Shown here: positions 14,216 to 31,706 of the stretch, piece by piece
Position numbering within the stretch: the stretch's first letter is position 1
How the letters are laid out: every line of letters begins with the position of its first letter
Assembly (NCBI GenBank): GCA_045546575.1
Contig: JAZQDC010000013.1
Coordinates: 50,256 to 114,255 of the forward strand
Source: Lachnospiraceae bacterium
Lineage (GTDB): Bacteria > Bacillota > Clostridia > Lachnospirales > Lachnospiraceae
DNA length: 64,000 nucleotides
Reading direction: 5' to 3'
The notes under the pieces: model-generated
Told to the model about the DNA's origin: nothing
Database searches by the model: none
Seen by the model: only the letters and a program-made list of their open reading frames with translations
Position numbers and translations under genes: made by a program

Positions 14216-14267
14216 TTCACGAATATTTGACGGTGACCCGCAGATACTCTCTGTGGGAGCGCCTTAG

Positions 14268-14316
14268 GCGGCAGGGGGCTTCGGATGTTCCGGAGTCCCT
14301 GCGCTGTTTTATGGTA
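14268..14316 (+). terminator. Rho-independent terminator after tkt (GCAGGG...CCCTGC followed by a T-run)
   Basis: Stem-loop followed by GCTGTTTT. Confidence 0.55.
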
Positions 14317-14374
14317 TAGGCAGATGCGTCTTATACTAAGATTGTGATGCAGAGCATTTGGAGGAGAGGACGAG

Positions 14375-16069
14375 ATGAGAGATAAGTTTCGCAGAGGATT
14401 GATGGTGGCCATTGCCTGTGTGGCAATGACGGGACTTACGGGCTGTAGAGACGTGGTTTCGGAGCCAAATGAGGGAGATCTTGTGGCGCCTGTTCTGAAT
14501 ACTACGGCGCTTACGGAGGAGCAGAAGCTGTTGGAGACCGGCGTGTGTGTATCCGTATCTGCCACACTGCCTTCCCGCTGGGGATACCAGACCGGATTAG
14601 ACATTAACGGAATCGAGGTAGACGGATACTACCGTCAGGACGAGATTCATTTTGATAGCAATAAGTATACGGAGTTGGAGGGTATTATCACCTTCCGTGG
14701 CAACAATTATCGTACCGGCGCGTCTTACGGCGTGGCCACTATGAGCAAGTATGCTTTGTCTGAGGCGTGGAGCATTAAGACCGGTGAGCTGAAGAAGACC
14801 GTAAGCAAGGGTGAGTGGACCGGAAGCGGTTGGACGGGACAGCCCTTAATTGTACGTTGGGACGAGGACACGAAACAGGCCATGAACCTGTACGACTCCA
14901 AGAAGAACAAGAGCGACTTGGTGGAAGTCATCTACGCCACCATGGACGGCAATATATATTTTCTGGACTTGGAGGACGGTTCCGCAACTCGCGAGAAGAT
15001 CAGCCTGGGCTTCCCTATTAAGGGAACCGGCTCCTTGTATCCCGACGGAACGCCGCTGTATGTGGTGGGTGCCGGAGATGACATGGGGGATGACAGCGCC
15101 CGTCTCTTCTTCGTAGATCTCTTGCAGGGCAAGGTCATCTACGAATTTGGCTACGATGATGCATATGCACTTCGCGAAGACAACGGCAAGTTCTGTGCAT
15201 TTGACTCTTCTGCATTGTTCCATGCGGAGACAGACACCCTGATACAGCCCGGCGAAAACGGTATTCTCTACACTATGAGGCTGAATACCGAATACGACGG
15301 CAAGACACTGACCATTAACCCTTCTGAGGTTGTAAAGTGGCGCTATACAAATGACCGCGTCACCGACGGTGATCGTTGGCTCGGCGTGGAGTCCTCGGCG
15401 GTTATTTACGATCATTATTGGTACGCAAGTAACAACAGCGGTGAGTTGATGTGTATAGACCTTAACACCATGGAGCTGGTGTGGGTGCAGGATGTCAGCG
15501 ACGACAGCAACGGTTCTCCCGTACTGGATGTGGATACTTCCGACGGAACGGCGTACATTTATGTCAGTGCGTCTCTCCATTGGACCAAGGACAAGAAGGA
15601 CAAGGGCGAGGTGCCCATCTACAAGATTAACGCCGCAACCGGTGAGGTGGTGTGGAAGCGTACCTACGAGTGTAAGACTGTGGACGGCGTGTCCGGCGGT
15701 GTGCAGGCCACGGCGTGTCTGGGCGAGAACAATATCAGTGACCTTGTGTATTTTAATATTGCCAGAACCGGTGGTAAGAAGCACGGTAAGCTGGTGGCCA
15801 TCTATAAGGAGACCGGTGGCGAGGCTTGGAGCGTAGATCTGAAGTACTACAGCTGGTCCAGCCCCGTGGCGGTATACGATGCAGAGGGCGACGGATATAT
15901 TATCCTCTGTGATTCTGACGGCAATATGCACCTGCTGGACGGACGCACCGGTGTACTGAAGGACACCATTAATCTGGGCAAGAATGTGGAGGCTTCTCCG
16001 GCGGTATTTGAGAACACCATCGTGGTGGGAACCCGCGGCAAGAAGATCTTCGGAATTCATTTGGAATAA
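14375..16069 (+). CDS. Lipoprotein with PQQ-like beta-propeller repeats (BamB-like fold)
   Basis: Lipobox LTGC, then repeated beta-propeller blades (…YIYVSAS…, …GDGYIILCDSDGNMHLLDGRTG…). Confidence 0.75.
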   Translation: MRDKFRRGLMVAIACVAMTGLTGCRDVVSEPNEGDLVAPVLNTTALTEEQKLLETGVCVSVSATLPSRWGYQTGLDINGIEVDGYYRQDEIHFDSNKYTELEGIITFRGNNYRTGASYGVATMSKYALSEAWSIKTGELKKTVSKGEWTGSGWTGQPLIVRWDEDTKQAMNLYDSKKNKSDLVEVIYATMDGNIYFLDLEDGSATREKISLGFPIKGTGSLYPDGTPLYVVGAGDDMGDDSARLFFVDLLQGKVIYEFGYDDAYALREDNGKFCAFDSSALFHAETDTLIQPGENGILYTMRLNTEYDGKTLTINPSEVVKWRYTNDRVTDGDRWLGVESSAVIYDHYWYASNNSGELMCIDLNTMELVWVQDVSDDSNGSPVLDVDTSDGTAYIYVSASLHWTKDKKDKGEVPIYKINAATGEVVWKRTYECKTVDGVSGGVQATACLGENNISDLVYFNIARTGGKKHGKLVAIYKETGGEAWSVDLKYYSWSSPVAVYDAEGDGYIILCDSDGNMHLLDGRTGVLKDTINLGKNVEASPAVFENTIVVGTRGKKIFGIHLE

Positions 16070-16171
16070 TAATTTTCAAAAAATGCAAGCCATATTATTC
16101 GACTGTTTGGAGATATTATTAGTACGGTGTTCATGAGAACGGCGTGAATAATGATAAGGATGGTGAATGGT

Positions 16172-16324
16172 ATGGACAACAGCAACAACAAGGCTAAGAA
16201 CAATAACCAGAATAGTGCTAAGAATTGCGGCCGCAACAAGGCGCAGAACAGCAATCAGAACAAAGCACAGAACAACAATCAGAATAAGGCAGAGAATAAG
16301 AACCAGAACAACGGCATGTTCTAA
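16172..16324 (+). CDS. Possible small Asn/Gln/Lys-rich peptide (about 50 aa). Low-complexity; could be non-coding.
   Basis: Uninterrupted frame MDNSNNKAKNNNQNSAKNCGRNKAQNSNQNKAQNNNQNKAENKNQNNGMF. An in-frame ATG also occurs at 16151. Followed by a strong terminator. Confidence 0.25.
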   Translation: MDNSNNKAKNNNQNSAKNCGRNKAQNSNQNKAQNNNQNKAENKNQNNGMF

Positions 16325-16390
16325 TTAGTTTCGGTTCTGAAGCGAATGTTCGAGGATTCGCACCGATGCCGAGATAGGAAGTAAAATCAA

Positions 16391-16446
16391 TGTACCGCCA
16401 CAGAATCGTAACAACGTGTTGTGATTCTGTGGCGGTACATTTTCAC
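16391..16446. terminator. Strong bidirectional terminator (17-bp perfect stem TGTACCGCCACAGAATC / GATTCTGTGGCGGTACA)
   Basis: Sits between the small + ORF and the convergent Fe-ADH gene. T-run on the + side. Confidence 0.8.
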
Positions 16447-16479
16447 ACATAAAAGAGAGATGATTAAAAAGTGAATCTA

Positions 16480-17628
16480 CTAAATCAGGCTTTCGTACAG
16501 CGCGGTAATCTCTTCGACGCTGGTTTCTCTGGGGTTACCCGGACGGCAAGCGTCGTCGTACGCGGATTGTGCAAGGAACGGAATGTCCTCGCGTTTCACA
16601 ATGTCCTTCAAGTTGGCGGGAATACCGACATCAATGGACAGCTGCTGTACAGCGTCGATAGCGGCCTTGCGATATTCTTCCTGCGTCATGGAGTCTACTC
16701 CGGGCACGCCCATGGCACGGGCGATCTCGCGGTATTTGTCGCCGGTGGCAGGAGCGTTGTATTCCATAACCGTAGGAAGAATAATAGCATTGGCAACGCC
16801 GTGAGGAGTATCATAAAGTGCACCGAGGGGATGTGCCATGGAATGAACGATACCAAGTCCGACATTGGAGAAGCCCATGCCGGCCACGTACTGGCCAAGT
16901 GCCATATCCGCACGACCTTCCGGAGTGCCTTCTACGGCACCGCGCAGACTGCGTGCGATAATCTCAATTGCTTTCAAATGGAACATATCGGACAGCTCCC
17001 AAGCGCCGCCGGTAATGTAACCCTCAATGGCGTGTGTCAGAGCATCCATGCCGGTAGCGGCAGTCAAGCCCTTTGGCATGGTGGACATCATATCCGGGTC
17101 GATAAATGCAACCACAGGGATGTCATGAGGATCTACACATACCATCTTACGATTCTTCTCTACGTCGGTAATCACGTAGTTGATGGTAACCTCCGCAGCA
17201 GTACCTGCCGTTGTGGGTACGGCAAAGATCGGCACCGACTTATTCTTGGTGGGAGCAACACCTTCCAGACTGCGAACGTCCGCAAATTCCGGATTCGCCA
17301 CGATGATGCCGATAGCCTTAGCCGTATCCATGGAGGAACCACCGCCGATTGCGATTAAATAGTCCGCGCCGGCTGTCTTCCAAGCCTCTACGCCGGACTG
17401 CACATTTTCAATTGTGGGGTTGGGCTTGATATTGGAATAAATCTCATATGCAAGACCCGCTTCGTCCAACACATCCGTAACCTTCTTCGTTACTCCGAAA
17501 CGAATCAGATCCGGGTCAGAACAGATAAATGCTTTCGCAAATGCACGCCCCTTCGCCTCGGTAGCAATCTCCCGAATGGCACCGGCGCCGTGATAAGAAG
17601 TTTCATTTAACACAAAACGATTCGCCAT
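16480..17628 (-). CDS. Iron-containing alcohol dehydrogenase (lactaldehyde/1,3-propanediol reductase-like)
   Basis: MANRFVLNETSYHGAGA...GGGSSMDTAKA...; group III Fe-ADH motifs. Start assigned to MANRF. Confidence 0.9.
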   Translation of the reverse strand: MANRFVLNETSYHGAGAIREIATEAKGRAFAKAFICSDPDLIRFGVTKKVTDVLDEAGLAYEIYSNIKPNPTIENVQSGVEAWKTAGADYLIAIGGGSSMDTAKAIGIIVANPEFADVRSLEGVAPTKNKSVPIFAVPTTAGTAAEVTINYVITDVEKNRKMVCVDPHDIPVVAFIDPDMMSTMPKGLTAATGMDALTHAIEGYITGGAWELSDMFHLKAIEIIARSLRGAVEGTPEGRADMALGQYVAGMGFSNVGLGIVHSMAHPLGALYDTPHGVANAIILPTVMEYNAPATGDKYREIARAMGVPGVDSMTQEEYRKAAIDAVQQLSIDVGIPANLKDIVKREDIPFLAQSAYDDACRPGNPRETSVEEITALYESLI

Positions 17629-17917
17629 AATATATCCCCTTTCTATATACAAAAATATCTTCTAAATCTACTATAGCATCCCAAGGGCACTCATGCAAAT
17701 GTTTCTTCGCAATAAAAAATCGCACTTCCGCCAAAATGACGGAAAATGCGATAAAAGTGACGTAATTTATATGATTATTTGCTGATTTCGCAGTACAATA
17801 AAAAGACTGATGAATTTCGCGAACGATTAAAACACTTGCGCAAAACCCATTGACGGGGCATATAACATTGGTTATAATGTAGATGATAATACTTGTTATA
17901 TAGCAAGGAGGTGTGTT

Positions 17918-18781
17918 ATGCAGAAACTTGTGAAACATATAAGAGACTATCTGGGGCTGAGTCAAGCTGACTTTGCGGATAAGCTGGGTGTGACCTTTGC
18001 CACGGTGAATCGTTGGGAGAACGGTAGAGCCATTCCTACTAAGCTCGCGCAGGCGAAGCTGTACGACTATTGCACGGAACAGGGCGTTCCCGTCTATCAG
18101 TTCGTACTGGAGAAGATCGCAAATGAGGCTGCAAGTGTTAACCTAGAGGACGGACGGATTCTCCTGTACCACGGCTCCAAGTCCGGCCTCGTGGGGGACA
18201 TTGCCCCTAAGAGCCGGGAGATGTGCGACTTTGGCAAGGGTTTCTATATGGGTACCGAGCCGGGGCAGCCACTGACGCTAATCTGTGACTTTGAAAAGTC
18301 CAAGTTTTATATCGTGTCCATCAACATGAAGAGCCTCGACACCGTGGAGATTAAGGCCGATCTGGACTGGGCGATGCTGGTGGCCTTTCATAGAGGCAGA
18401 ATGGATAAGATCAAGGGCACTGCCTTCTACGAGAAGTACAGTCGTATCGATGCCGGTAAGGACCTGGTGATTGGAAGTATTGCCAACGACAGAATGTTCT
18501 ACGTGCTAGACAACTTCTTCATGGGGAATATTACGGATATGGCGCTTGTAAACAGCCTGTCTGCTCTGAAGCTAGGCAAGCAGTATGTGGCCACCACCGA
18601 GAAGGCTTGCGCCGCCGTTCGCATTGAACGGGAGATTCCTCTGTCCATGATGGAACGCCGGTTCCTACAGGACGAGAGCGACGCTAACCGTCAGAAGGGT
18701 ATTGCTCTTGCCAATGATATCTGCAAGAATTACCGCCGTGAAGGAAACTTCTTCGATGAGATTATGGATGAGGCGAGATGA
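17918..18781 (+). CDS. HTH_XRE domain fused to DUF3990
   Basis: N-terminal LSQADFADKLGVTFATVNRWENGRAIP (Cro/C1-type HTH). The remainder matches the DUF3990 pattern. Confidence 0.65.
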   Translation: MQKLVKHIRDYLGLSQADFADKLGVTFATVNRWENGRAIPTKLAQAKLYDYCTEQGVPVYQFVLEKIANEAASVNLEDGRILLYHGSKSGLVGDIAPKSREMCDFGKGFYMGTEPGQPLTLICDFEKSKFYIVSINMKSLDTVEIKADLDWAMLVAFHRGRMDKIKGTAFYEKYSRIDAGKDLVIGSIANDRMFYVLDNFFMGNITDMALVNSLSALKLGKQYVATTEKACAAVRIEREIPLSMMERRFLQDESDANRQKGIALANDICKNYRREGNFFDEIMDEAR

Positions 18782-19197
18782 GTATGGATGAACTGAAAAT
18801 GAAACTGTGTGATATACAGGGCAGACTGTTTGAACTGTCCGGCGCGAGGGGTTACGACAGCGTGACATTTATCAAAGCATTTATGACCTCTGAGGTGGCC
18901 AAGGGACTGGATTCCAAGTTTAATCGCATGCAATGGGCGGGGGAGGAATACTTGCTTGCCGAGCTTGCGGAAATCGTCGAGCTGACCGAAGGCGGTGAGG
19001 TGTACGACACAGAGGTGCTCTATTGGAGCGGCTACTTGTACCGCTTCTGGCACTTTACCACCGGCGAGAACAGCAAGGAGATCTACAAGCAAGCCCCTGC
19101 CGAAACCATGAGACGCAACTGGCTCATCTTCCACACCCTCGCCCCCGAAGTGGCGATCGAGGATCTGAAAGAGATCTATAGGCAGAGGAATGAATAA
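18778..19197 (+). CDS. DUF3791-family protein (usual partner of DUF3990)
   Basis: 4-bp overlap with the upstream gene. Small helical protein. Confidence 0.55.
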   Translation: MSMDELKMKLCDIQGRLFELSGARGYDSVTFIKAFMTSEVAKGLDSKFNRMQWAGEEYLLAELAEIVELTEGGEVYDTEVLYWSGYLYRFWHFTTGENSKEIYKQAPAETMRRNWLIFHTLAPEVAIEDLKEIYRQRNE

Positions 19198-19221
19198 GAA
19201 TCATCTCCACTATGAAACAAA

Positions 19222-19260
19222 GGCTCTCGTCTTGGCATAAGACGGGAGCCTTATATTGTT
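19222..19260. terminator. Terminator hairpin GGCTCTCGTCTT...AAGACGGGAGCC
   Basis: 12-bp stem. The same stem sequence is reused at 27191-27219 as the metG T-box terminator. Confidence 0.7.
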
Positions 19261-20024
19261 CTCTTATAAACAAACGCATTCCCTTGCTTGCCTACCCGTT
19301 CAATGCACTCGAGGTGCAACAGGATGTTAGTGGCAACCTGGGCTCTTGCCTTGGGAATCTTCCCGCAGGCGGCAAGATCGGCAGTGGTGAACTCCTCGGG
19401 GAGGGAGTCCGGAAGGAAATAGCCGTAGTCCTCCTTGGTGCACAGCGGCACTTCCGCCACCAAGGCCTTGGGCAGACCGTCATTTCTGGTGGCGCGCTTC
19501 TTCTTATCTGCGCCGTACCCGTCTAACATCTTGTATTCTTCAATATCCATCAGCGCCAGCCGAATGCTGAGCCTGGGGTGGCGCAGAAAATCCTTAATCC
19601 CGTACAGCTCGTCAAATACACGAAACCCGTAGTCCGTCTTGGGGCTGCGCCTGGGAGCGGTCACAGCACCGGTGTCCGGGTCCACCCAGCAGAGCCATTT
19701 GCGATACGTGACGGGGTATACAATGGTCACCGGGCATTCCGTGAGAAATGCATGGAGCTTCCGCTTCATCCGGAAGAAACCGCGGGTCTGAATCTCGATG
19801 ACGCCCTCGGGACGGCAAATGTCCGCCACAAATCCACAGGTGGGAACCTCCTCATACACGGCCTCCTCCGCATAGAACCGCTTCAGCACCGCATGGGTGC
19901 TCTTCTCCGCCAAAGTGCCGATGCCACCGGCAGCGGTGAGCTCATCTAGGGTGGCGTCGCAGACTTGCTCGAAGAGCTGCGCACGCTCAGGGGAAATGAT
20001 GTGTTGTAGGAGTTGGTTGTTCAT
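19251..20024 (-). CDS. Hypothetical protein; possible PD-(D/E)xK-like nuclease core (weak)
   Basis: No recognisable family. A D...EIQ pattern gives only a weak nuclease-fold hint. Confidence 0.3.
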   Translation of the reverse strand: MNNQLLQHIISPERAQLFEQVCDATLDELTAAGGIGTLAEKSTHAVLKRFYAEEAVYEEVPTCGFVADICRPEGVIEIQTRGFFRMKRKLHAFLTECPVTIVYPVTYRKWLCWVDPDTGAVTAPRRSPKTDYGFRVFDELYGIKDFLRHPRLSIRLALMDIEEYKMLDGYGADKKKRATRNDGLPKALVAEVPLCTKEDYGYFLPDSLPEEFTTADLAACGKIPKARAQVATNILLHLECIERVGKQGNAFVYKRTI

Positions 20025-20325
20025 GAGGACCTCCGGGGGGTGAGTGGGGTAATGGGGGATGAGCTGAGAGGGCAGGGCGATGGGTCATCCGGGAAATGAG
20101 TCCTGAGAGGGACGGGAGATGAGCCATCGGGATGGGGCTGTCTGCTCTTATTCTAACATGCGGAGAGGGGGAAGGCAACTGAAAATGCGGAGAATATAGA
20201 CTTATTGAGAAGTTTGTTGAGTTGTCAAAGAAGTTCTCGTCGGGCGAGAGTTTTACATTATTTATTCAAAACCTATTGATATTTTGTCGAAATTAGCGCA
20301 TAATATATCCGACGAGGTGATGATA

Positions 20326-20943
20326 TGAAGCGTAATATTTCTTTGAATCAAATTGAAAAACGAATCCGTAAATCACAAAAGGGAACGCTTTTTTGACTTC
20401 TGATTTTACGGATTTTGCATCATCGGATGCTACAAATAAGGCTCTTCTTCGTCTTGAGGATGCTGGACTTATTCGAAGGATTCTTTTCGGCATTTACGAA
20501 TACCCCGATTATAATGAATTTTGGGGCGAATATGTCGAGTCGTCGCCTGATATAGTAGCGTAACACTTTGGCAAGGAAGTTCGGTTGGACGAGTGTTCCC
20601 TGCGGAGATACGGCGCTCAATATGCTTGGACTTTCAGCGCAAGTTCCTACTGTTTGGCTTTACATCAGTGATGGGACAGGAGTATTCTTACGGAAACACC
20701 ATGATTAAATTCAAGCGCACAACGAATAGAGAGATTTCGAAGATCTCATATAAGACTGCGCTTGTTATTCGGGCTCTCAAAGCACTTGGTAAGGAAAATA
20801 TAACCGCCGAGATTATCGATAAAATTGTGTCAACGACTACCGACGAAGAAAAAGCTACGATGTTTGTTGAAGCGAAATACGCAACGTCGTGGATATACGA
20901 CATCATAATAGAACTTTGTGGAGGGGCAAGACGAGAAACATAG
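20326..20943 (+). pseudogene. AbiEi-like antitoxin (type IV TA / abortive infection), disrupted by at least 3 frameshifts
   Basis: Pieces in three frames: MKRNISLNQIEKRIRKSQKGTLF | LTSDFTDFASSDATNKALLRLEDAGLIRRILFGIYE | ...FGWTSVPCGDTALNMLGLSAQVPTVWLYISDG... | ...KFKRTTNREISKISYKTALVIRALKALGKENITAEIIDKIVS. Together these are typical of AbiEi. Confidence 0.6.
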
Positions 20944-21844
20944 CAACAATACCGGCGCGTGACCGCGAGGCGATTATAGGAAAAGATTTTTGGGTCTGCT
21001 ATATGCTCGACTATCTTTTCCACCGTTCTGCGAGGAAGGAGAATCTTGCGTTCAAAGGGGGTACAGGCCTTTCCAAAGCCTACGGACTTATCGAGCGTTT
21101 CTTTGAGGACATTGATTTGATTCTCGATTGGCGTGTTCTCGGCTACGGCATCAACGAGCCGTGGGAAGAACGCAGCAATATGAAACAGGATATATTCAAT
21201 AAAGAAGCGAATACGAGAGCCGAAGAGTTCCTTCGTGATACATTCTTGCCCGCTATTTCTGCCGACCTTGCTTCCGAGCTTGGCGGCGGAGTGAAATGTT
21301 TTATCGATCCCGACGATCCGCAGACTGTGAAGATCTCATATCCGAATAGTTTTGCGGATATGTCGATTCTCCAAGATATCAGGCTTGAAATCGGGCACTT
21401 CCGCGTGGACTTCTGTAAAGGTTGCTGTTATTACGCCATATTCCGTGCAAGTGTACGGCAGACTCTTCAAGCAACCCTCAACTGATATTTTAACCGTCCT
21501 ACCCGAGCGCATCCCTTGGGAGAAAAATTACAATTTTGTACGGAGAGGCGTTTCGCGCGGAAGATAGACCCTTCCCGACAAGATATTCCCGACATTATTA
21601 CGACTTGTATCAAATGATGCAAACTGAAGTGAAAGACAACACGCTTGCGAATAATGACATTTTAACTTGCGTTGTGGATTTCAAGGACAAGTTCTACTGT
21701 TGCCCATGGGCGAGATATGATCTCGCCAAGCGCGGCACAATGCGCTTGATGCCACCCGGATATAATCTTGATAAGCTCCGCGATGACTGTGAGCATATGC
21801 AGAATATGCGTTCGGAGATAAGCCGAGCTTCGAAGAGATTATGA
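20889..21844 (+). pseudogene. AbiEii-like nucleotidyltransferase toxin (DUF1814), frameshifted into 3 or more fragments
   Basis: KENLAFKGGTGLSKAYGLIERFFEDIDLILDW in one frame; ...RYSRHYYDLYQMM... in another. Confidence 0.6.
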
Positions 21845-21897
21845 AGGGAATTGAAAAACTCGAAAACGATATCAATGAATACAGAAAGGAGAATTAA

Positions 21898-23031
21898 ATG
21901 AAAGATCTGGAAAAACCCATGATGGATAATGCTGTAAACGAAAACGAAGAGGTAAATTTACAGTTAGCCGAGAATGAGAATGTGGACGAAGAAACACAAT
22001 CTTCAAGCGAAGACAAAAGAAAACTTTTGGAAAAAACAAAGATAGTTAAACAAACATGGTCTATTTTGGAAATATACCAAAAAGTTCAAGCGAAAAAGCT
22101 TGTATTAGATCCTGATTATCAAAGAAATCAGATTTGGAAATTAGATAAAAAGACCGCTTTTATTGAGTCGCTTTATATGGGAATTCTAATTCCACCAATT
22201 TACGTTGTTGAAATACCCGGAGAAAATATTCTTGATGGTGCAACTTATGAAGTTGTTGATGGTAAACAAAGATTAACTACAATATTAGATTTTATAGAAA
22301 ACAAATTTGCGTTAGCGAACAAATCGCTTGAGTATTATAAAGATTGGTTTGAAAACAAAAAGTTCGCTCAAATACAGTCAGAATATACCGAACTTACAAA
22401 TACAATGCTCTCATCAGTGCTCGATATATATGTGATCACATCGAATTCTCCTGAATTTACTAAATACGATATATTTTCTCGTTTGAATAAAGGATCGGAG
22501 CCCTTAAAAGTAAATGAGATAAGAAAGGCAATATATCAAAGCCATGTATTGAAACTAGTTTCTGAATATGTTGAGAGAAATTTGAAAAATCCAATATACG
22601 AGACCATCTTTACAAAAAATGATATTAAGCGTTACGAAGATTATGGACGCTTCTTTAGGAGCATTGCTTTTTATGTTAGATCCAATCCGGAACGGAATAT
22701 TATTGAGGCATACAATTCGAGACCGCGTGAAATGATAAATAATGTTCTTTCGGGGCTTCAAAATAAAACTATCATTATAAATGATATCAAACTTAAAGCA
22801 ATCCTTAATGCTACCATTCAACTTTGCTTAATGTATAAAGATCAAACAAATGGTTTACATTTGATAGATGCCTCGATATATTTTGCTACCGAAAAGTTAG
22901 AAAAGTATAAAGAGAAATATACTACAATTGTTAATGATGATATAATTAAGGAAACGCTAGAAAAATCCGCAACGACTACAAGCAATGTAAATGCAAGATT
23001 TAAACGGATTCATGAAATAATGGGTGAGTGA
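21898..23031 (+). CDS. DUF262 (ParB/Srx-like NTPase/nuclease domain) protein, GmrS-like, without a DUF1524/HNH partner domain
   Basis: DPDYQRNQIWKLDKKTAFIESLYMGILIPPIYVVE...YEVVDGKQRLTTILDF matches the DUF262 signature. Very AT-rich coding sequence. Confidence 0.75.
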   Translation: MKDLEKPMMDNAVNENEEVNLQLAENENVDEETQSSSEDKRKLLEKTKIVKQTWSILEIYQKVQAKKLVLDPDYQRNQIWKLDKKTAFIESLYMGILIPPIYVVEIPGENILDGATYEVVDGKQRLTTILDFIENKFALANKSLEYYKDWFENKKFAQIQSEYTELTNTMLSSVLDIYVITSNSPEFTKYDIFSRLNKGSEPLKVNEIRKAIYQSHVLKLVSEYVERNLKNPIYETIFTKNDIKRYEDYGRFFRSIAFYVRSNPERNIIEAYNSRPREMINNVLSGLQNKTIIINDIKLKAILNATIQLCLMYKDQTNGLHLIDASIYFATEKLEKYKEKYTTIVNDDIIKETLEKSATTTSNVNARFKRIHEIMGE

Positions 23032-23037
23032 TCTATT

Positions 23038-23667
23038 ATGGCAAGTGATAATAGAAAATTTATCGAAACACAAATAGAGGCATTGTTAATAAGGCGGTTT
23101 TTGGTTGCTTATGATGAATTGGAAGCGGAAATCCGAAACATTTTTACAGAAAACATATCATTAATATTGCCACAAAAGAAGGAATTACTGTTTTTTTATT
23201 TAGCAGGAATAAAAAGCAACGTTCATATTGAATACGGAAATCATTCTTTAAGTGCGGTGTCGGCTCAATATTGTTCAAATGAAAAGTTTTCGATGTTTAG
23301 TTCCAACCAAATTATTAAAATCCATCGGCAATGTCATTTGTTGGATGTGTTTGATTTTAACATACAGTCAATCAATAATAAAAAAACGGAATACGTATTT
23401 ACGGACTCTTACATTAAACTTCTGAATATGCGAAACAAACTTGCTCATGAATTGTCACACTTGGTATTTAAAGACAGTGATGTTATTGAACTGTTATCGA
23501 ATGATTATATTGAAGAAAACAGTTCTGAGTGGTTATCATATTTAGATGCCAAACTTATGACAGATGAAAGCAAAAGTATATTTAGCAATTTAATTATGAT
23601 GAATGCCATAATTAAAGAACTGAAAAGGAGAAAAGTTCAAAATGTTGAAGCAGTGGATAGTGAATAA
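23038..23667 (+). CDS. Small protein with HEPN-like Rx4-6H motif (MRNKLAHE); Abi-like/DUF4145-like candidate RNase
   Basis: 7-bp gap after the DUF262 gene. Motif R-N-K-L-A-H in a predicted helical context. Confidence 0.45.
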   Translation: MASDNRKFIETQIEALLIRRFLVAYDELEAEIRNIFTENISLILPQKKELLFFYLAGIKSNVHIEYGNHSLSAVSAQYCSNEKFSMFSSNQIIKIHRQCHLLDVFDFNIQSINNKKTEYVFTDSYIKLLNMRNKLAHELSHLVFKDSDVIELLSNDYIEENSSEWLSYLDAKLMTDESKSIFSNLIMMNAIIKELKRRKVQNVEAVDSE

Positions 23668-26089
23668 TATTAGTGACTTTAATAACAACATAAAAACCGA
23701 AGAAGATTTAAAAATAAAAGTATTGCTTCCTTACTTAAGAAGTTTAGGGTATATGGATTCTGAGTTTCGTTTTGAACATAGCATTGACGTGACAATCGGA
23801 ACAAAGAAAACTACGGTGTTTTCGGATTTGGAGATTATTGTTGACGGCAAAGCTGAGATAGTCATTGATACTAAGTCGCCATCAAAAAGTATATCTGAAA
23901 AAGATGTATTGCAATCAGCCAGTTATGCAAAGCTGATTAATACTCCTCCTGCGCTTTATGGTATTACTACAAACGGACTGGAGTGTATTGTTACAAACGT
24001 ATATACAGGAAAACGAATTAGCGAAATACCCACTAAAACTCAGCTCATTAGAGATATTGATAAATCAAAGAAGAAACCTCTTCGCGATGTTGAGTTGCGA
24101 GAAGTCGAAAGTATTCTCTTTACCCTTCATAATACAAAAGAATTATATAAGGTTATTCAAGATAGCAAGGATGTAATAGAAAAACGAGGCTTAATTCGTA
24201 GCGATCAATCCTTTAGAGAAATGACAAAAATTATATTGACCAAAATGAACGAAGAGCGACGAGTCAAAGCAAAAGAGGGGAATAATCGGTTTTCTAGTTC
24301 ATATCTTTCATCTGCGGCTAAGATTAATGAAACTATTGAACTTGTTATATTCAATCAGTTGTTTGATGAAGCAAAAGCAAAATATCCAAGTATTTATACA
24401 AATGAAAATGAAACGCTACAGATATCCGATAATAATTGTATTGTAGATATCGTAAGGAAACTGGAACCGTTCTCGTTTGTTGGAACTGGAGATGATATCA
24501 AGGGAACGGTATACGAAGTGTTTTTGAAATCTACACTTAGAGGAGAGTTTGATCAGTATTTTACTCCTCGAGAGCTGGTTGATTTTATGGTTAAATGCGC
24601 GGATCCGGATATTGGAGATGTTATTTTAGACCCGGCCTGCGGATCGGGTGGATTTCTTATTCAAGCGTTTAATTATGTAAATAAGAAGATCAATAATTCT
24701 AATACTTCTGAAATTGATAATAATAACAAATTCATGGCGCTCATAGACAAATGCTTATGGGGGCATGAGGCGGATTATGATCTGCATGTATTAGCAAAAA
24801 TCAATCTTATTATGCACGGAGATGGATGGAATAATATCTATCAAGGGGATACATTAAAGAGTGACAAGATTCCAAACAATCATTTTGATCTTGTTTTGGC
24901 AAATCCGCCATTTACCATAGCGTATACGTTTTCGGATGTTTTAAGTAAATACGAGTTGGGAGTTGGAAAGAGGTCCGAGGAATTAGACGTTCTTTTTGTT
25001 GAGAAAAGTTTGATGGCACTAAAACCAGGTAACGATATGTATATAGTTTTACCTGAGGGACTTTTAAACATAAAAAAATATTCTTATTTTAGAGAATGGT
25101 TATTACAAAAAACAGATATGCTAATGTCAATTTCTCTTCCTGAGGGGGCATTTATCCCTTTCGGTGGATCAGTTTCTAAAACGTGTATTCTGGGAGTTCG
25201 GAAGAAGGGCCGAGAAGAAGATAATTATGCGCCACCCAAATATGTATTCCTTGGCAAAGCTCTTGAAGTAGGGTATGAAACTGGCAAAAAGGCTTACATC
25301 CCCAATAATAAAAATGATCTGGAAGAGATGACGTTCTTCATAAATGAAATATTTAATGGAGTAAAGCAGACAACTAATGGTGGTGAATGCGGGTGGATTA
25401 AGCAAGAAGATATAACATCCTATAGAATTGATGCGAATTATCTTCTGAATCGAATTGATAGACATGCTTTAGAAGAACGATTTCCAATCTTGGTGCCTTT
25501 AAAAGAAGTATGTCAAATTCGAAACGAGTCTGTATCGGTGCGAAATGATAAGGACTATAATTATTTAGAGGTGCCTGACATATCTGAAGCAACCGGTGTA
25601 ATCACTAATGTTCGAAGGATTGCAGGTAAATTATTAAACCAGTCATCCTTCCACAAATTCTATCCAGGGGATATATTATTTACAAGAATTAACCCAAGGA
25701 AAAACAGAATTGCCATCGCGCCACCTATCGATGATTATGGAATTGTTTCAAAAGAAGTATTTAGATTGGAACTTAAGCCCAATGAATATATAGACTATCA
25801 AGATAGGTATGTTCTTTGCGCGATATTACAGTCGTCCCACGTACACAATCAAATTGTACGGTTGTCTACAGGATCTTCGTCTTCTCGCGCACGCGTTCAA
25901 GAAGATGATTTGTTAGCAGATGTTTACATTCCGATCCCAGGCAAAGATTTGCAAAAAAGGCTTAGTGGATCTCTTGCAAAAACAACGATGGAAATATGGA
26001 GTTGTTCACAAAAATTCTTGTCGACGTATGAAGAAAACCAACAATTGTTGGGCTCTCTCGTCAATAAGAACGATATGAGAAGCGTTTGA
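23642..26089 (+). CDS. Single-polypeptide Type IIG/IIL (MmeI-like) restriction-modification enzyme: N-terminal PD-(D/E)xK nuclease (HsdR_N-like), gamma-class N6-adenine MTase, and one HsdS-like TRD
   Basis: N-terminus ...VFSDLEIIVDGKAEIVIDTK (D...DxK); MTase motif I DPACGSGGFLIQ and motif IV LANPPF. The C-terminal region resembles an S-subunit TRD (GDILFTRINPRKNRIAIAPP...). Overlaps the upstream gene by 26 nt. Confidence 0.7.
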   Translation: MLKQWIVNNISDFNNNIKTEEDLKIKVLLPYLRSLGYMDSEFRFEHSIDVTIGTKKTTVFSDLEIIVDGKAEIVIDTKSPSKSISEKDVLQSASYAKLINTPPALYGITTNGLECIVTNVYTGKRISEIPTKTQLIRDIDKSKKKPLRDVELREVESILFTLHNTKELYKVIQDSKDVIEKRGLIRSDQSFREMTKIILTKMNEERRVKAKEGNNRFSSSYLSSAAKINETIELVIFNQLFDEAKAKYPSIYTNENETLQISDNNCIVDIVRKLEPFSFVGTGDDIKGTVYEVFLKSTLRGEFDQYFTPRELVDFMVKCADPDIGDVILDPACGSGGFLIQAFNYVNKKINNSNTSEIDNNNKFMALIDKCLWGHEADYDLHVLAKINLIMHGDGWNNIYQGDTLKSDKIPNNHFDLVLANPPFTIAYTFSDVLSKYELGVGKRSEELDVLFVEKSLMALKPGNDMYIVLPEGLLNIKKYSYFREWLLQKTDMLMSISLPEGAFIPFGGSVSKTCILGVRKKGREEDNYAPPKYVFLGKALEVGYETGKKAYIPNNKNDLEEMTFFINEIFNGVKQTTNGGECGWIKQEDITSYRIDANYLLNRIDRHALEERFPILVPLKEVCQIRNESVSVRNDKDYNYLEVPDISEATGVITNVRRIAGKLLNQSSFHKFYPGDILFTRINPRKNRIAIAPPIDDYGIVSKEVFRLELKPNEYIDYQDRYVLCAILQSSHVHNQIVRLSTGSSSSRARVQEDDLLADVYIPIPGKDLQKRLSGSLAKTTMEIWSCSQKFLSTYEENQQLLGSLVNKNDMRSV

Positions 26090-26099
26090 GAGAGTCGGA

Positions 26100-26351
26100 C
26101 TTGCAAACGAAAAGAAAAAGAAGGTCTACAAGTTATCCGGAGGAGAGCAGCAGCGTGTAGCACTGGCGCGTTTGATGATAAAGAGGTGTGAAGTGATTCT
26201 TGCGGATGAGCCTACGGGCTCTTTGGATGATAAGAATGGAGAACGAGTGCTGGAGATTCTTCGCGAACTGAATCGGGAAGGGAAGACAGTAGTGCTTGTT
26301 ACACACAGCAAAGCAATAATCGATGCGGGAGGACGGGTCATTGAATTGTAG
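26100..26351 (+). pseudogene. 3' remnant of an ABC-transporter ATP-binding gene (signature motif to C-terminus only)
   Basis: ...KLSGGEQQRVALARLMIKRCEVILADEPTGSLDDKNGERVLEILRELNREGKTVVLVTHSK...* with no Walker A or start codon. GC content returns to the host level here. Confidence 0.7.
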
Positions 26352-26375
26352 TGCGATGGAGGCAGCGAAGCGGAA

Positions 26376-26795
26376 ATGGAATCTGTAAAGAAGAAATGGT
26401 TAATCGGAGTTCTTGTGGCTCTTGTGTTTGTTGGTGTTGCGGCATACTTGATTGCAATTGCAGTATTAAACGAAAGGACATCGAAAAAAATTGCTTTCAA
26501 CCCGGAGATGAACTGTAGATGGGAGGCTGATGGGGACTTTTATTATACTGCGGATACCGCATCCGTGTTTCTTCCGAAGGTAGAGATATATGCCACCTAT
26601 AATGCTCCGGACGACATAGAAGTGGAGATACTCATTGAGAAAAGCTTGTTCGGAAAGAAGAAAATGTACTTGTCCATTTATGATGCAGAAGAGGACAAGT
26701 GGTCGGGTAGGGCGACGCTTAATTCGAATATGGAGTACACACATATGAATCCCAAGGACGAAGACGTATGTACGACGCAAACGAGGCTGCGGTAG
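26376..26795 (+). CDS. Membrane-anchored hypothetical protein
   Basis: N-terminal TM helix; 139 aa; no known domain. Confidence 0.45.
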   Translation: MESVKKKWLIGVLVALVFVGVAAYLIAIAVLNERTSKKIAFNPEMNCRWEADGDFYYTADTASVFLPKVEIYATYNAPDDIEVEILIEKSLFGKKKMYLSIYDAEEDKWSGRATLNSNMEYTHMNPKDEDVCTTQTRLR

Positions 26796-26924
26796 TAGCT
26801 TTGTTTGAAAAGGTGGATAAGTTATGGGGAACCGTTAAGTGATTGCAGGAGATAGAAATGTCTCGCAAAACTCCCCCTTGACAACCCGCTCCTCCTCGTA
26901 GTATGATTGCAACAAGTTCATATC

Positions 26925-27225
26925 ATTTGGCGATGAAGAGAAGAGTACCTGTTGTAATCCGATACAGAGAATCCGCGGTGGCTGAGAGCGGAACGGCAAT
27001 TGCAGGAGGGAACATGGTCTTGGAGCCGCGCAGGCGAGGATGCAGAGGTTTTGTTCCGGAGGCGGAACGAGCGGTGAGTGGCATCTTAGGTTGCGCCGGG
27101 AGCACCCGTTATCGTGTTAGGCTGTCGAGCAATCCGCAGCTGATAGAGGCACAGGAAACTGTGTGAAGTAAAGTGGTACCACGAAGCTACGGCTCTCGTC
27201 TTTATATAAGACGGGAGCCTTTTTC
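26925..27225 (+). promoter_or_regulatory. T-box riboswitch leader (probable Met specifier) controlling metG
   Basis: Stem I AGAGA/AGTA motifs. Conserved T-box sequence AAAGTGGTACCACGAAG at 27170-27186, overlapping the terminator hairpin 27191-27219 plus T-run. GGGAACATGG is a candidate AUG specifier. Confidence 0.75.
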
Positions 27226-27359
27226 AATATCTGGGAGCGTGTCGGCTCATGGATATTGGAACAGAGAAAAGGAACCTACCAAGGTTTTTGGAACCACCCC
27301 CACCGCCCATGATAGAAATGAACAAAACAGATATACTACTTTTACGGAGGTAAGAATTA

Positions 27360-29512
27360 TGTGCAATTGTTGTGACAAGACGAAGAAGCCTTACTACATT
27401 ACCACCGCCATTGCGTACACCTCGGGTAAGCCCCACATCGGCAACACCTACGAGGCGATTTTGGCGGATGCCATTGCGCGTTTCAAGCGTTACGAGGGCT
27501 ACGATGTATTTTTCCAGACCGGTACGGATGAGCATGGTCAGAAGATTGAGATTAAGGCAATGGAGTCCGAGACCACACCCAAGGCATTTGTCGATGAGGT
27601 GGCAGGGACCATTCGCGGTATCTGGGATCTCGTTGGCACGTCCTACGACAAGTTCATCCGCACCACCGACGCGGATCACGAGCGTCAGGTGCAGAAGATT
27701 TTTAAGAAGCTCTACGACAAGGGCGACATCTACAAGGGAAGCTACGAGGGCTTGTATTGTACTCCTTGTGAGTCCTTCTGGACCGAGTCGCAGCTCGTGG
27801 ATGGCAAATGCCCGGACTGTGGTCGTGACGTGCAGCCCGCCAAGGAGGAGGCGTATTTCTTCCGTATGAGCAAGTACGCGGATCGCTTGATCGAGCATAT
27901 CAACACCCATCCCGAGTTTATTCAGCCCGTGAGCCGCAAGAACGAGATGATGAACAACTTCCTGTTGCCGGGACTTCAGGATCTGTGCGTGTCCCGTACG
28001 TCATTTAAGTGGGGCGTGCCCGTGGATTTTGATGATCGCCACGTGGTATACGTGTGGCTGGACGCCCTCACCAACTATATCACCGGTATCGGCTACGATG
28101 CGGACGGTGACAGCACCGAGCAGTTTGGCAAATTGTGGCCCGCAGACTTGCATCTGATCGGCAAGGACATCATTCGTTTCCATACGATTTATTGGCCCAT
28201 CTTCCTCATGGCTCTGGATGTGCCTCTTCCGAAGCAGGTGTTCGGTCATCCTTGGCTGCTGCAGGGTGGCGAGAAGATGAGCAAGAGCCGCGGCAATGTG
28301 ATCTATGCCGACGACCTTGTGAAATTGTTCGGCGTAGACGCGGTGCGCTATTTCGTATTGCATGAGATGCCTTTCGAAAATGACGGCGTGATTACCTGGG
28401 AGCTCATGGTGGAGCGTACCAACTCCGACCTTGCCAACACCCTTGGTAACCTCGTAAATCGTACCATTTCCATGACCAACAAGTACTTTGGCGGCGTTGT
28501 GAAGAAGACCGGCGTAGAGGAAGAGGTGGACGCAGATCTGAAGGCCGTTGTCACCGGTACGAAGGCCAAGGTTGCTGCGAAGATGGACGGTCTGCGTGTG
28601 GCGGATGCCATTTCCGAGATCTTCACGCTGTTCAAGCGTTGCAATAAGTACATTGATGAGACCATGCCTTGGGCACTTGCCAAGGATGAGAGCAAGCAGG
28701 ACCGTCTTGCAGAGGTGCTCTACAACTTGACGGAGTCTATCGTAATCGGCGCAAGCCTCTTAGAGAGCTTCTTGCCGGAGACTGCACAGAAGATTGCGGC
28801 ACAGCTGGGTACGGAGCTTCGTGCATATGACGCTACCGAAGAGTTCGGTCTGTACGAGAGCGGTAATAAGGTAACGGATGCACCTCAGATTCTCTTCGCT
28901 CGTCTGGATTGGAAGGAGATCGCTCCCAAGGTGGAGGAGATTCAGGCGGCACAGAAGGCAGAGTACGAAGCAGAGCAGGCACGTATCGCCGCAGTGTATG
29001 CGAAGAACGGCAAAGGTGTAAATGCACCTGCCGAAGGTAGTGCTACGGGAGCGACCTGTGCAGGTGGTGTCGGAGTCGGTGTGGCCGGCGCAAGTGCATG
29101 TGGTTGCGGCACGGCAGCAGGTACCAAGTCCACGGAGGAGATTCTTGCCGAGGCAGAGACTCGCTTTATTGACCTTGAAGCCAAGGAAGAGATTGAGTAC
29201 GACGACTTCGCTCGTATGCAGTTCCAGGTGGGCGTAATCCTCAAGTGCGAGGAAGTGCCCAAGTCCAAGAAGCTCCTGTGCTCTCAGGTGAAGGTGGGTA
29301 GCAAGGTGCTCCAGATCGTATCCGGTATCAAGAAGGCGTACAGCCCTGAGCAAATGGTAGGCAAGCGTGTTATGGTTCTTGTGAATTTAAAGCCCGCCAA
29401 GCTGGCAGGACTCACCTCCGAAGGTATGCTTCTGTGTGCCGAGGACGAAAATGGCGAACTCTCCTTGATGGTACCTGAGAAGGATATGCCCGCAGGAGCG
29501 GAGATCTGCTAA
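27360..29512 (+). CDS. metG: Methionyl-tRNA synthetase with C-terminal EMAP/Trbp111-like tRNA-binding domain
   Basis: HIGN-type motif (KPHIGNTYEAI), KMSKS motif, Zn-knuckle cysteines, C-terminal OB-fold domain. The linker carries a Gly/Ala/Cys low-complexity insert. Confidence 0.97.
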
Positions 29513-29633: not shown

Positions 29634-29805
29634 CATTTGCCGGTGAGTGCATGATATAACGTCGAAAATATATTAACTTTGTGTTACATTTCGCCTCTTC
29701 CGTTGTTTTTTTTGTTGTTTTGTTATATAGTTAGTATGTGATGGTGGACATTGCGTGTGAGAATACAGAGAATCTACGAATGCAACGCTATATAAGGGAG
29801 GCAAT

Positions 29806-31702
29806 TATGGGGCGATTTATGAAAGAGTTGAGATATTCCATGAAGATGCGTAGGCATCTATTCTTTTTGATGCTTGTTTGGTTTGCGGTAACCACGGCAT
29901 TATGGCTATTCCAGGGAACGGTTTTGCAAGAGCTTAAGAGCTCATTTCCCGGGGATTACGGCGTGAAGACATCGGGAACTGCCAAGGAATATAAGGTGGC
30001 GGGGTATTACGATGAGATGGCCTCTGTGACCGACAGCGATCTAAAGGCGGAACTTCGTTTCAATCAGAAGTTGCACAGCGCGGATTGGATGGACTACCGC
30101 GAGATCGTGGTGGACAACCTCTATGTGCGCGCATATTCGGGAACCGATCTGGCGATTGTCGGTTACGAGCAGGGCGATTATGTGGACAATAAGGACGTGG
30201 ATGTGGAAGGTACGCTTCACAGTCTGATTAATACCATTTGGATGGATTATGCAGCGGTGGAAGAGGCTAAGCTCGGTCTCTATGCTGAGAAACTGTTTCA
30301 GTATCCCAATGACTACATAGATCGTATGTTTGTTGTGCTGGGTGCGGGCCTGGAAGGTGATTACCAAGTTGGCGATGTAATGGAAGTAAGAACGGACTAT
30401 GGTTCTATGGACGCTTATGTTAGAGGCTTTTTGAACAAAGGTGCCAAAGCGGAACTGAACGGTAAGAGTATCAATCTGGATTACTTTATTGTGTGCCCGC
30501 TGGATAATATGGACAATATTTACGGTGGCGATGACGAGGCGGCTGAGACGTACGTGTCGCCGATATTCTTACATCATACAGCATTGACAGAGGATATGTC
30601 TGTCTGTGATAATACTTTGAATAATGCCACTATGGTCACAGACGATAAGGAGTATCGTGCGGTGAAGAGTCTCTGGTTGTCCCGTGATGTACTGAAGAGT
30701 ACGGAGACGGATCCGGAGTGGATTCAGAAACTGGCCAAGAGTCAGAATGCAATGTATAACAGCATTGCGCTTGGTAGCAACTATGAAGTTACCGGACTTG
30801 GCAAGATCGGTAGTTCCATGGATGTGAAGGGTATCGATTCGATTCTTTCTTGTGTGTGTACGCAGGTGTTGCCGGCGGGAACTACCATAACGGTAGACGG
30901 CAAGGAGATTTGCTTGGATGATTATATTGTCTTCGTTCAGCCGGATTATGAAGTGATTTATTCTGAGGAAGGTGAGGCGCCCGGTGCACCGGTATCCCCC
31001 ACGCCTGCTCCCGATGCAGGGGCCGGTGAGGATGTGAATCAAGACGGGGAAGATGTGATTACGCCGGATGATTCGGATGTTTCTACAGAGATGATTGTGA
31101 ATACGTACAGTGTGGCAGAACGTTCGAAGTTATTCTATATTCTCTTCCTGAAGAACCGTGGTTACTTTGAGACCACTTATGCGCCAAATGAGGCACAGCG
31201 TAAGCTCACTGTCATGGTAGAGGACGCATGGAAGAACTTCTACTTGGAGAATGAGAATAAGGACGCGATAACCACCTATACCGTTCGCGAAGCAGATGCG
31301 GCAAATAGCATCTTGTATCGTCAGGACATTGCCACATTGCAAGGCAAGATGAAGACAATTGCTAAGGTGGGCCTGTGGCTTGGTTTGGCACTGTTGGTGT
31401 TGTATTATTTCCTGAAACTTCGCAGAGGTAAGGATTATTATACTGCCATTGTACTGACCGGAACCTCTTCGGTTGAGGTTATGGTATTGTTCCTGCTTGA
31501 GGGGGCACTCCTGTTCGTTCTTGCAAATGCGGTGGGTTATGTAGGTTGTTTCGTTATCTGTAAACTATTGCATCTGCAGATGATAGGTATCGGCGGTATT
31601 GTGAAGTGGAATCTGTTGGTGATCGGATTGCCTACGCTGGCCATTTCCGTATGGGTGCTGATTCGTGACTACGGAAGAATGTTCCGTAGAGTAAGGGGGT
31701 AA
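29806..31702 (+). CDS. FtsX/MacB-type ABC transporter permease with a large extracytoplasmic domain
   Basis: N-terminal TM, an extracellular domain of about 480 aa, and C-terminal 3-TM FtsX region. Confidence 0.7.
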
Positions 31703-31706
31703 CGAG

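Follow-up and report, generated by a model that had tools for sequence, protein, structure and literature searches.

Why does a gut Lachnospiraceae bacterium carry, between two conserved genes, an AT-rich tract that runs directly into the tail of a truncated ATP-binding cassette (ABC) ATPase gene? The locus lies in a 64-kb stretch of DNA (the window, to which all positions below are specific and whose remainder served as the backbone for comparison), between a gene for a DUF8091 protein and the methionyl-tRNA synthetase gene metG. The original prediction read it as one island inserted into a resident ABC gene. We consider it likely that the 6.7-kb segment from 20179 to about 26866 is instead a mosaic of at least three unrelated pieces filling a hotspot, and not one insertion into a resident gene. 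The pieces would be a host-like AbiEi/AbiEii pair, full length and inactivated by six frameshifts; an intact AT-rich (34% GC) DUF262-HEPN-methylase defence cassette; and a 90-codon tail of an Lcn972-type ABC ATPase gene followed by a small membrane-anchored open reading frame (ORF), both of host-like composition. Because these pieces differ in composition and in decay, a single acquisition would not account for them.

The interval between the DUF8091 gene and metG

Conserved sequence frames the locus on both sides. To the left stands the DUF8091 gene (19251..20024, minus strand; 257 amino acids (aa); homologues with Pfam PF26351) with its leader and promoter region (20025..20178, minus strand). 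To the right, on the plus strand, follow the metG promoter TTGACA-18-TATGAT (26878-26907, 11/12 positions matching), the T-box leader (26924-27206; 84.6 bits, E 6.9e-19) with its terminator hairpin (27191-27219, a terminator-like site), and the core gene metG itself (27356..29512), assigned by methionyl-tRNA synthetase (MetRS) comparison. The T-box score lies below the Rfam gathering score of 93, so that a gathering scan of the whole window gave no RNA family.

Two sets of relatives were compared with the window. A Lachnospiraceae metagenome-assembled genome, L001, was chosen as the best of 80 Lachnospiraceae loci returned by a MetRS scan; its MetRS is 94% identical to that of the window (~87% identity in nucleotides), and the metG products of the 79 other loci are 70-76% identical. 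A second set, L093 and L094, was found through the 90%-identity cluster of the DUF8091 protein and is 91-92% identical to the window in nucleotides overall. The DUF8091 protein is 94% identical in L093 and 76% in L001, and the synteny of its gene with the PQQ-propeller and transketolase genes is retained in two further loci, L085 and L086.

In L001 the DUF8091 gene and the metG promoter are separated by ~230 bp, as compared with 6.8 kb in the window. Positions 7128-7766 of L001 align with window 19408-20044 (DUF8091 gene) and positions 7994-8352 with window 26867-27224 (metG promoter and leader), the latter match being 95% identical from 26867 onward and taking in the conserved right flank, 26878..27219. 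The AbiE genes, the cassette, the ABC remnant and the 139-aa ORF are all missing from L001 at this locus. Since the L001 gap includes the place of the ABC remnant, the remnant belongs inside the variable segment and is not demonstrated host DNA; by the same comparison the right edge of the variable region, previously set at 26089, lies at ~26866.

The left edge was found where it had been anticipated, between a pair of G-rich repeats and abiEi. Homology of L093/L094 to the window spans 13687 to 20178 and ends at 20178/20179, just past the repeats, the leader region being ~91% identical up to that point. The G-rich motif occurs in two plus-strand copies (20064-20092 and 20103-20131; 39-nt period, 79% identical, repeat family D3), which on the minus strand form a C-rich leader of the DUF8091 gene, with a promoter-like site at 20178-20150 on that strand; the motif is kept in L093/L094 and not in L001. 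Because the homology ends past the repeats, they are part of the conserved DUF8091 leader. Their candidacy as an island feature or a known RNA was rejected, given their conservation in L093, the absence of an Rfam match and a fold z of -1.6.

Beyond position 20178 each relative carries something else. L093 continues with at least 9.8 kb of different DNA, in which three ORFs (227, 131 and 429 aa) accompany a Type I restriction-modification (RM) system (hsdM, hsdS, a 241-aa ORF, hsdR). Between the DUF8091 gene and metG, L085 has AraC-type and HTH_3 genes, and L086 and L087 have DUF2262, DUF3791/YunG and CN_hydrolase genes, to which L086 adds WYL, ATPase_2/DUF234 and TnpV genes. The interval is thus in all likelihood a variable hotspot in this Lachnospiraceae clade, a judgement that we make jointly with the one on the mosaic and that draws on these alignments.

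Defence islands at chromosomal integration hotspots carry variable cargo between conserved core genes. The DUF8091-metG interval resembles them in that the DUF8091 gene and the metG leader border it as conserved sequence and in a defence cargo that differs from relative to relative: the DUF262-HEPN-methylase trio in the window, a Type I RM system in L093, WYL, ATPase_2-DUF234 and TnpV genes in L086, and none in L001. It differs from them in that the window has no integrase, tRNA or att repeats, in that its cargo includes decayed genes and a gene remnant, and in that its junctions fall at the exact ends of functional ORFs. No tRNA was found in the window, no integrase or transposase was found in the segment, where every ORF is assigned to other functions, and no direct or inverted repeats, att-like or terminal, were found at 20179/26866 or 21898/26089; the short direct repeats for which a search of the junctions had been proposed were likewise not found there. 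A metagenome scan with the 26-nt metG promoter pattern gave no match, and exact-protein look-ups of the DUF8091 protein, the 139-aa ORF and a 100%-identical RM protein returned no record.

Three pieces of differing composition and decay

The AT-rich anomaly, estimated by eye at ~20.2-26.09 kb, is real, but it extends over 4.2 kb rather than 5.9 kb. From 21898 to 26089 the GC content is 0.339 vs 0.47 for the rest of the window; all 1-kb windows inside this tract are at or below 0.37 GC, and of the 222 windows lying elsewhere than in the segment none falls below 0.406 (z = -3.9 for the tract). In a 500-nt sliding window GC stays at 0.30-0.38 from ~21.9 to 26.0 kb, flanked by 0.55-0.58 on the left and on the right by 0.44 (26.0-26.75 kb) and then ~0.52 beyond 26.75 kb. 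When 2-kb bins are used, the pair covering 22-26 kb (0.314, 0.360) is the lowest in the 64-kb window, the other bins lying at 0.42-0.54. The tetranucleotide distance of 21898-26089 to the backbone is 0.498, vs a length-matched null of 0.173 +/- 0.033 in which 0 windows reach 0.498. Codon usage, also described as different across the whole region, departs in the cassette, whose three genes have a third-position GC content (GC3) of 0.27-0.31 vs 0.48-0.71 in neighbouring genes; this anomaly too is limited to 21898-26089. The sliding-window plot that had been suggested as a check is therefore non-uniform with the cassette as its outlier, but the other two pieces are host-like: the AbiE stretch (20326-21885) has a GC content of 0.446 (z = -0.75; tetranucleotide p ~0.10), below the left flank and no outlier for the window, and the ABC remnant with the 139-aa ORF has one of 0.459 (tetranucleotide p ~0.71; remnant alone 0.48).

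The left piece consists of an abiEi (DUF6088) pseudogene (20325..20943, plus strand; Pfam DUF6088 on two pieces, PADLOC AbiEi) and an abiEii pseudogene (20889..21897, plus strand; PADLOC AbiEii, 5.9e-38 and 1.5e-21 on two pieces). The original prediction had called them remnants, and comparison with the intact pair on Anaerococcus prevotii pAPRE01 bears this out: both are full length and carry three frameshifts each. In tblastn searches, pAPRE01 AbiEi covers abiEi in frames 2, 3 and 1 after the start at 20325, in agreement with the three-frame translation, and AbiEii aligns over residues 27-327 (its last residue) in frames 3, 1, 2 and 1. A promoter-like site (20276-20304) lies ahead of abiEi, and the last abiEii frame ends ...ENDINEYRKEN, with its TAA at 21895-21897 abutting the DUF262 ATG at 21898. 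Set against the six frameshifts of the pair are long intact ORFs nearby (815 aa and 779 aa); because these neighbours are intact, the frameshifts reflect gene decay and not a general sequencing-error pattern. The pair resembles AbiE systems (type IV toxin-antitoxin/abortive infection) in its adjacent genes for a DUF6088 AbiEi and an AbiEii nucleotidyltransferase, with piecewise identities to the pAPRE01 pair of 41-58% (AbiEi) and 40-56% (AbiEii), and differs from them in that neither gene reads as an intact ORF, each being frameshifted three times. Judged from its reading frames, the pair is non-functional.

The middle piece is the AT-rich cassette of three plus-strand genes, and the catalytic motifs are invariant in all three of its proteins. 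The first gene (21898..23031) encodes a 377-aa DUF262/ParB-like NTPase, NsnA/PD-T4-2_A-like (Pfam GmrSD_N, 9.2e-25), whose best PADLOC match is NsnA (1.1e-49, positions 12-379 of 385), followed by PD-T4-2_A (1.8e-23 over its full length). It contains QRNQIW, DGKQR and FSRLN, corresponding to the three DUF262 motifs QRxxxW, DGxQR and FxxxN defined in PMC12065111.

The second gene (23038..23667) encodes a 209-aa protein that we take to be a putative HEPN-type RNase on the basis of its motif, its predicted fold and matches made at the level of the family. The protein itself gave no direct family match and reached no Pfam HEPN model. Its family comprises 116 clusters at 50% identity, all of ~200 aa, in which R132, N133 and H137 are invariant across 83 members, and the AlphaFold model (pLDDT 95.9) and these residues together give the four-helix bundle with a conserved R-x4-6-H that defines HEPN proteins. 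Family members match Pfam HEPN_MAE_28990 (7, best 8.3e-07), HepT-like (7), RiboL-PSP (5), Swt1 (3) and Abi_2 (3).

The third gene (23642..26089) encodes an intact 815-aa protein with a nuclease-like domain, a gamma-class N6-adenine methyltransferase and a C-terminus resembling a target recognition domain (TRD), detected by Pfam HSDR_N_2 and N6_Mtase. Matches in the PDB cover an HsdM-like core (2okc, 3ufb, 5ybb, RM.BsaXI) and, for residues 619-778, Type I S subunits; D62, D76-x-K78, DPxCGSGGF and NPPF are invariant in 24 homologues (57-84% identity). More than 100 homologues of 812-817 aa match it at 100% coverage, and for this reason we regard the protein as intact. From its domains it is predicted to be a single-chain nuclease-methyltransferase-specificity protein of Type IIG-like design. 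The TRD-like C-terminal region (residues ~540-815) is as conserved as the methyltransferase core (e.g. RINPR and GSSSSRARV; homologues P0003-P0116) across Clostridia, Listeria, Aliarcobacter, Ignavibacteria and Saprospiraceae, which is unusual for RM specificity domains and suggests one shared target across the homologues.

The same trio was found in other contexts, namely L081, L082, L084 and three Listeria monocytogenes loci (L089-L091), with all three components homologous across loci. In L081 the element that contains it also carries TnpV, NikA-like, ParB_N and tyrosine integrase genes; in L082 its flanks reach ~0.6 GC; and the RM gene copy of L084 is 96% identical to that of the window in amino acids. 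The DUF262 protein is 77% identical to its L081 and L082 partners and 39% to the Listeria partner. Gene order is permuted in Listeria, where the methylase is followed by the DUF262 gene and that of a 217-aa protein, which carries IRNGLAHE and is detected by a hidden Markov model of the 209-aa family at E 1.5e-11. DNA homology is limited to the three genes (21965-26085 for L081 and 21961-26037 for L082), the cassette GC is 0.32-0.38 in every host, and identity in these unrelated contexts is 72-96%. A tblastn search of the RM protein against PLSDB plasmids and INPHARED phages returned no close copy at E <= 1e-50. Because of its aberrant composition, its absence from both relatives at this locus and the occurrence of the same three-gene unit in unrelated genomes, the view that the AT-rich core is foreign DNA is supported. 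From these comparisons it reads as a conserved mobile three-gene cassette that would move as a unit between distant Firmicutes.

Two further observations concern these other contexts. A pair of TnpV and ATPase_2/DUF234 ATPase genes adjoins the cassette in L081 (5737-7667) and is also found in L086, in the hotspot beside the DUF8091 gene (2039-4494); its presence at both sites may point to one kind of mobile element that brings cargo to such places. In L082 the 21 nt that end the RM gene, GACAGTATGAGGAGTGTATAA, form three tandem repeats straight after the stop codon (10623-10690).

The right piece is the 3' remnant of an Lcn972-type/FtsE-LolD-type ABC ATPase gene (26079..26351, plus strand; TIGR03608, 1.7e-36), which reads EAFERVGLANEKKKKVYKLSGGEQQR...IEL* in its own frame. 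It covers positions 118-206 of the 206 in TIGR03608 and 88-136 of the 137 in Pfam ABC_tran. The gene had been correctly recognised as truncated, the Walker A motif being absent, as is the Q-loop; its extent had been misjudged, since 90 codons plus a stop remain rather than ~75 codons, and the 5' loss is ~57% rather than two-thirds. In a search of 5.8 billion proteins its best homologue, encoded on contig L083, reached 73% identity, and a near-identical intact gene was not found there; the listed homologue matches are all of 75-158 aa, below full ABC ATPase length. When full-length homologues were searched over the window by tblastn, the only N-terminal halves recovered were those of two complete but unrelated ABC genes, one at 31.7 kb and one at 60.4 kb. 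The best paralogues in the window are only 45% and 38% identical to the remnant, so that no window paralogue could have donated it.

Downstream follows the 139-aa ORF (26376..26795, plus strand), which has an N-terminal membrane anchor and no family match; no relative of it was found in JGI metagenomes. A small membrane-anchored ORF follows the ABC gene at the matching position in L083 and L015, and the 139-aa ORF was probably once part of the ABC module. The remnant resembles lactococcin 972-type export/immunity ABC modules (TIGR03608), whose C-terminal 89 positions it matches, and L083 has the module order of membrane protein, ABC gene (frameshifted there) and small membrane-anchored ORF. 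It differs in that the window keeps the last 43% of the ATPase and has no permease and no bacteriocin gene; the ABC tail is, to judge from what is left of it, dead. ABC genes upstream of metG in other Lachnospiraceae were rejected as orthologues of the remnant, those of L018, L019 and L028 being MetN-type methionine importers, and so was the L015 ABC gene, whose 40% identity does not exceed the 45% of an unrelated ABC gene of the window itself (60.4-61.0 kb).

Junctions and competing accounts of the segment

The right edge of the AT-rich part is as sharp as had been claimed, falling within 12 nt. The RM C-terminus is native: it reads DMRSV* in the window, DIRSV* in L081 and SMRSV* in L082, and ends in ...RSV* also in L084, whose RM copy aligns through the stop codon and shows no relation to the window immediately beyond it. 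The ABC remnant shares the final 11 nt of the RM gene, stop codon (26087-26089) included, and is read in another frame, contrary to the initial description of it as a continuation of the RM frame. By these alignments the right crossover lies within a 12-nt interval, 26079-26090. The RM gene ends in AGT-GTx-TAA in L081, L082 and L084 vs AGC-GTT-TGA in the window, where the ABC frame reads GAA GCG TTT GAG, or EAFE, vs EALE in L083. The crossover may have occurred in the short microhomology GAAG/GAAGCG; if it fell inside GAAG at 26079-26082, the last two RM codons and the TGA would be ABC-derived. The AGT to AGC and TAA to TGA substitutions fit such a crossover, and simple point mutation fits equally. 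An extension of the ABC gene into 26028-26078, found by tblastn with the L083 ABC protein and running through the stop codon, was rejected, as L084 contains this DNA too and has no ABC gene beside it. At the other end of the cassette, its ribosome-binding site sits within the abiEii tail.

Because there are no flanking repeats, tRNA or site-specific machinery, we infer that the junctions arose by illegitimate recombination/deletion, probably in several steps, with selection keeping functional ORFs to their ends. The step that made the right junction would have cost the ABC gene its 5' 57% and presumably eliminated a permease partner as well. That an insertion/deletion event, as originally envisaged, fused the cassette to the truncated ABC gene is supported; the idea of one island placed in a resident host ABC gene is not, as L001 lacks the gene.

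This bears on the account with which we began, in which a single horizontally acquired island (AbiE plus RM/DUF262) entered a resident ABC ATPase gene and took the place of part of it, what remains of the gene and the 139-aa ORF being native. The sharp cassette-ABC junction, the host-like GC and tetranucleotides of the remnant and the ORF, and the 90 open codons that the remnant retains would all suit it, as would the Agathobacter relative L015, in which a permease, an ABC gene and a small membrane ORF lie upstream of metG. However, that ABC gene is the distant one rejected above (40% identical, vs 45% for an unrelated window gene), both the ABC gene and the 139-aa ORF are absent from L001 here, the missing 5' half is found nowhere in the window, and the best homologue of the remnant among 5.8 billion proteins is only 73% identical. 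Between the AbiE genes and the cassette there is a sharp contrast in composition and decay, which argues against their joint arrival, and L093 holds a different island at the site. With a gap of ~230 bp in L001 and a mosaic composition in the window, we find one island in a resident gene unlikely. The comparison with relatives lacking the island, which had been proposed to settle the matter, located the junctions but produced no intact ABC orthologue at the locus.

That the window arrangement is ancestral, with L001 and L093 having lost or replaced the segment and no acquisition in this lineage, is very improbable. Polarity is unprovable from two relatives and deletions are common at such sites, but the cassette, with a GC content of 0.34 and a GC3 of 0.27-0.31, is far from its genome in composition and recurs at 72-96% identity in unrelated contexts that include a ~60% GC host and Listeria, and every relative examined has different content here. 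Still harder to credit is an assembly artefact in which AT-rich foreign DNA was mis-joined into a metagenome-assembled contig: the source is apparently a single 114-kb NCBI contig without close relatives and GC changes abruptly at the cassette edges, yet the flanks share a syntenic backbone with L001 (DUF8091 gene, then metG), so that a chimera would need two precise mis-joins, and the junctions lie within dense coding sequence, where stop and start codons overlap, not at repeats. Several points weigh against the mosaic hotspot that we favour. The nearest relatives are ~91% and ~87% identical in nucleotides, with no same-species genome among them, so that the order of events and the earlier native status of the ABC module are reconstructed; the L093 contig stops before metG, and its comparison covers the left junction only; and the host-like composition of the ABC remnant and the 139-aa ORF is equally compatible with a resident gene.

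The cassette as a putative defence system, and its surroundings

The cargo had been described as defence-related, and this applies to both the AbiE genes and the DUF262-HEPN-methylase cassette. By its gene content the cassette is a member of an already predicted kind: Anantharaman et al. 2013 (PMC3710099, Table 1) list the operon type in one table line from comparative genomics, without experiments. Both combine a DNA methylase with a DUF262/ParB-like protein and a small HEPN protein that has the motif R-N-x3-H; the window differs in that its methylase is a fused nuclease-methyltransferase-TRD protein. No experimental study of the trio was found in the literature searched.

Three known systems come close. 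PD-T4-2 (Vassallo et al. 2022), a validated Escherichia coli system, is described in PMC10952713 as having DUF262 and HEPN domains, and the window has a DUF262 protein, matched over its full length by PD-T4-2_A (1.8e-23), beside a HEPN-like protein. In contrast, no PADLOC model, including PD-T4-2_B, matches the 209-aa protein or its ~82 relatives, NsnA outscores PD-T4-2_A on the DUF262 protein, and the part of PMC10952713 that describes PD-T4-2 names no methylase. The Menshen system (NsnA-NsnB-NsnC) shares the DUF262 protein, which best matches NsnA (DUF262 + ParBDB) and has the three motifs; ~28% of Menshen loci adjoin RM, BREX or methylase genes, and the authors put forward the idea that DUF262 may target unmodified DNA (PMC12065111). 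The next two genes of the cassette match neither NsnB (AAA_15/DUF3696 ATPase) nor NsnC (inPIN + nuclease), a HEPN protein occupying the effector position; because NsnB and NsnC are absent, the cassette is, by its gene content, not a Menshen system. Finally, the 815-aa protein resembles Type IIG single-chain R-M-S enzymes in combining a PD-(D/E)xK-type N-terminus (HSDR_N_2), a gamma N6-adenine methyltransferase and a TRD-like C-terminus in one polypeptide, and Type I HsdM/HsdS in its S-subunit-like TRD region and a methyltransferase core similar to StySJI and EcoKI HsdM and to RM.BsaXI. It differs from both in that its TRD-like region is conserved like a catalytic core across phyla and in that its gene is usually linked to DUF262 and HEPN genes.

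Whether the three proteins act together can be judged only tentatively, and we regard one integrated defence system of DUF262 NTPase, ~200-aa HEPN protein and 815-aa nuclease-methyltransferase as possible rather than probable. The methyltransferase would mark self DNA at N6-adenine, and unmarked invading DNA would be cut by the PD-(D/E)xK domain that the 815-aa protein also contains. Alternatively or additionally, the DUF262 NTPase may sense unmarked DNA and switch on the HEPN RNase as a second, abortive arm. That the trio is kept in permuted order from Clostridia to Listeria argues for functional coupling, and that the methylase gene is also found alone argues that it can work independently too. 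The RM-type gene occurs without its DUF262 and HEPN partners in L092 (Aliarcobacter), where it adjoins IS1595, and in L095, the sole IMG/VR locus found for the RM protein, the partners being absent within the available sequence in both cases; the window may therefore hold two adjacent systems and not one.

Other features surround the locus. Two copies of a hairpin, GGCTCTCGTCTT-N5-AAGACGGGAGCC, have the same 12-nt stems, where chance predicts 0: one at 19222-19250, directly after the stop codon of the minus-strand DUF8091 gene, and one at 27191-27219, as the metG T-box terminator. The copies align best in inverted orientation (44 nt, 84%), and between them lie the DUF8091 gene, the variable segment and the promoter of metG; L001 has the T-box copy only and L093/L094 have the other. 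A second variable segment (16470-19250), replaced by 308 bp in L001 and present in L093, encodes an Fe-alcohol dehydrogenase (16480-17652, minus strand), a helix-turn-helix (HTH) + DUF3990 protein (17918-18781; PADLOC candidate-defence PDC-M13/PDC-M42A) and a 139-aa protein (18778-19197; PADLOC candidate-defence PDC-M42B); the L093 version has an extra AAA_14/DUF4143 gene. Downstream of metG, 29738-32723 encodes a 654-aa membrane protein without a family match and a 338-aa ABC ATPase with a degenerate signature (LTELEQQK in place of LSGGQ), a pair kept after metG in L001 and L085.

Taken together, these results would place the island limits at 20179 to ~26866, with the three-gene cassette annotated as intact and the AbiE pair and the ABC tail as dead. 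The DUF8091-metG interval would then serve as a compact, clear case of a defence hotspot among gut Lachnospiraceae, with cargo turnover between close relatives and no recognisable integrase. As a whole the locus appears to be an ordinary defence island, and its main by-product is a clean example of the DUF262-HEPN-methylase trio. If the trio does form one system, an N6-methyladenine mark would be the self signal read by a ParB-like sensor, and unmarked DNA would lead to DNA cleavage and to RNA cleavage by the HEPN protein, that is, to abortive infection. Such a system would be related to PD-T4-2 and Menshen and gated by methylation; its genes, in permuted order, are kept from Clostridia to Listeria, and the Listeria monocytogenes version would make it experimentally tractable.

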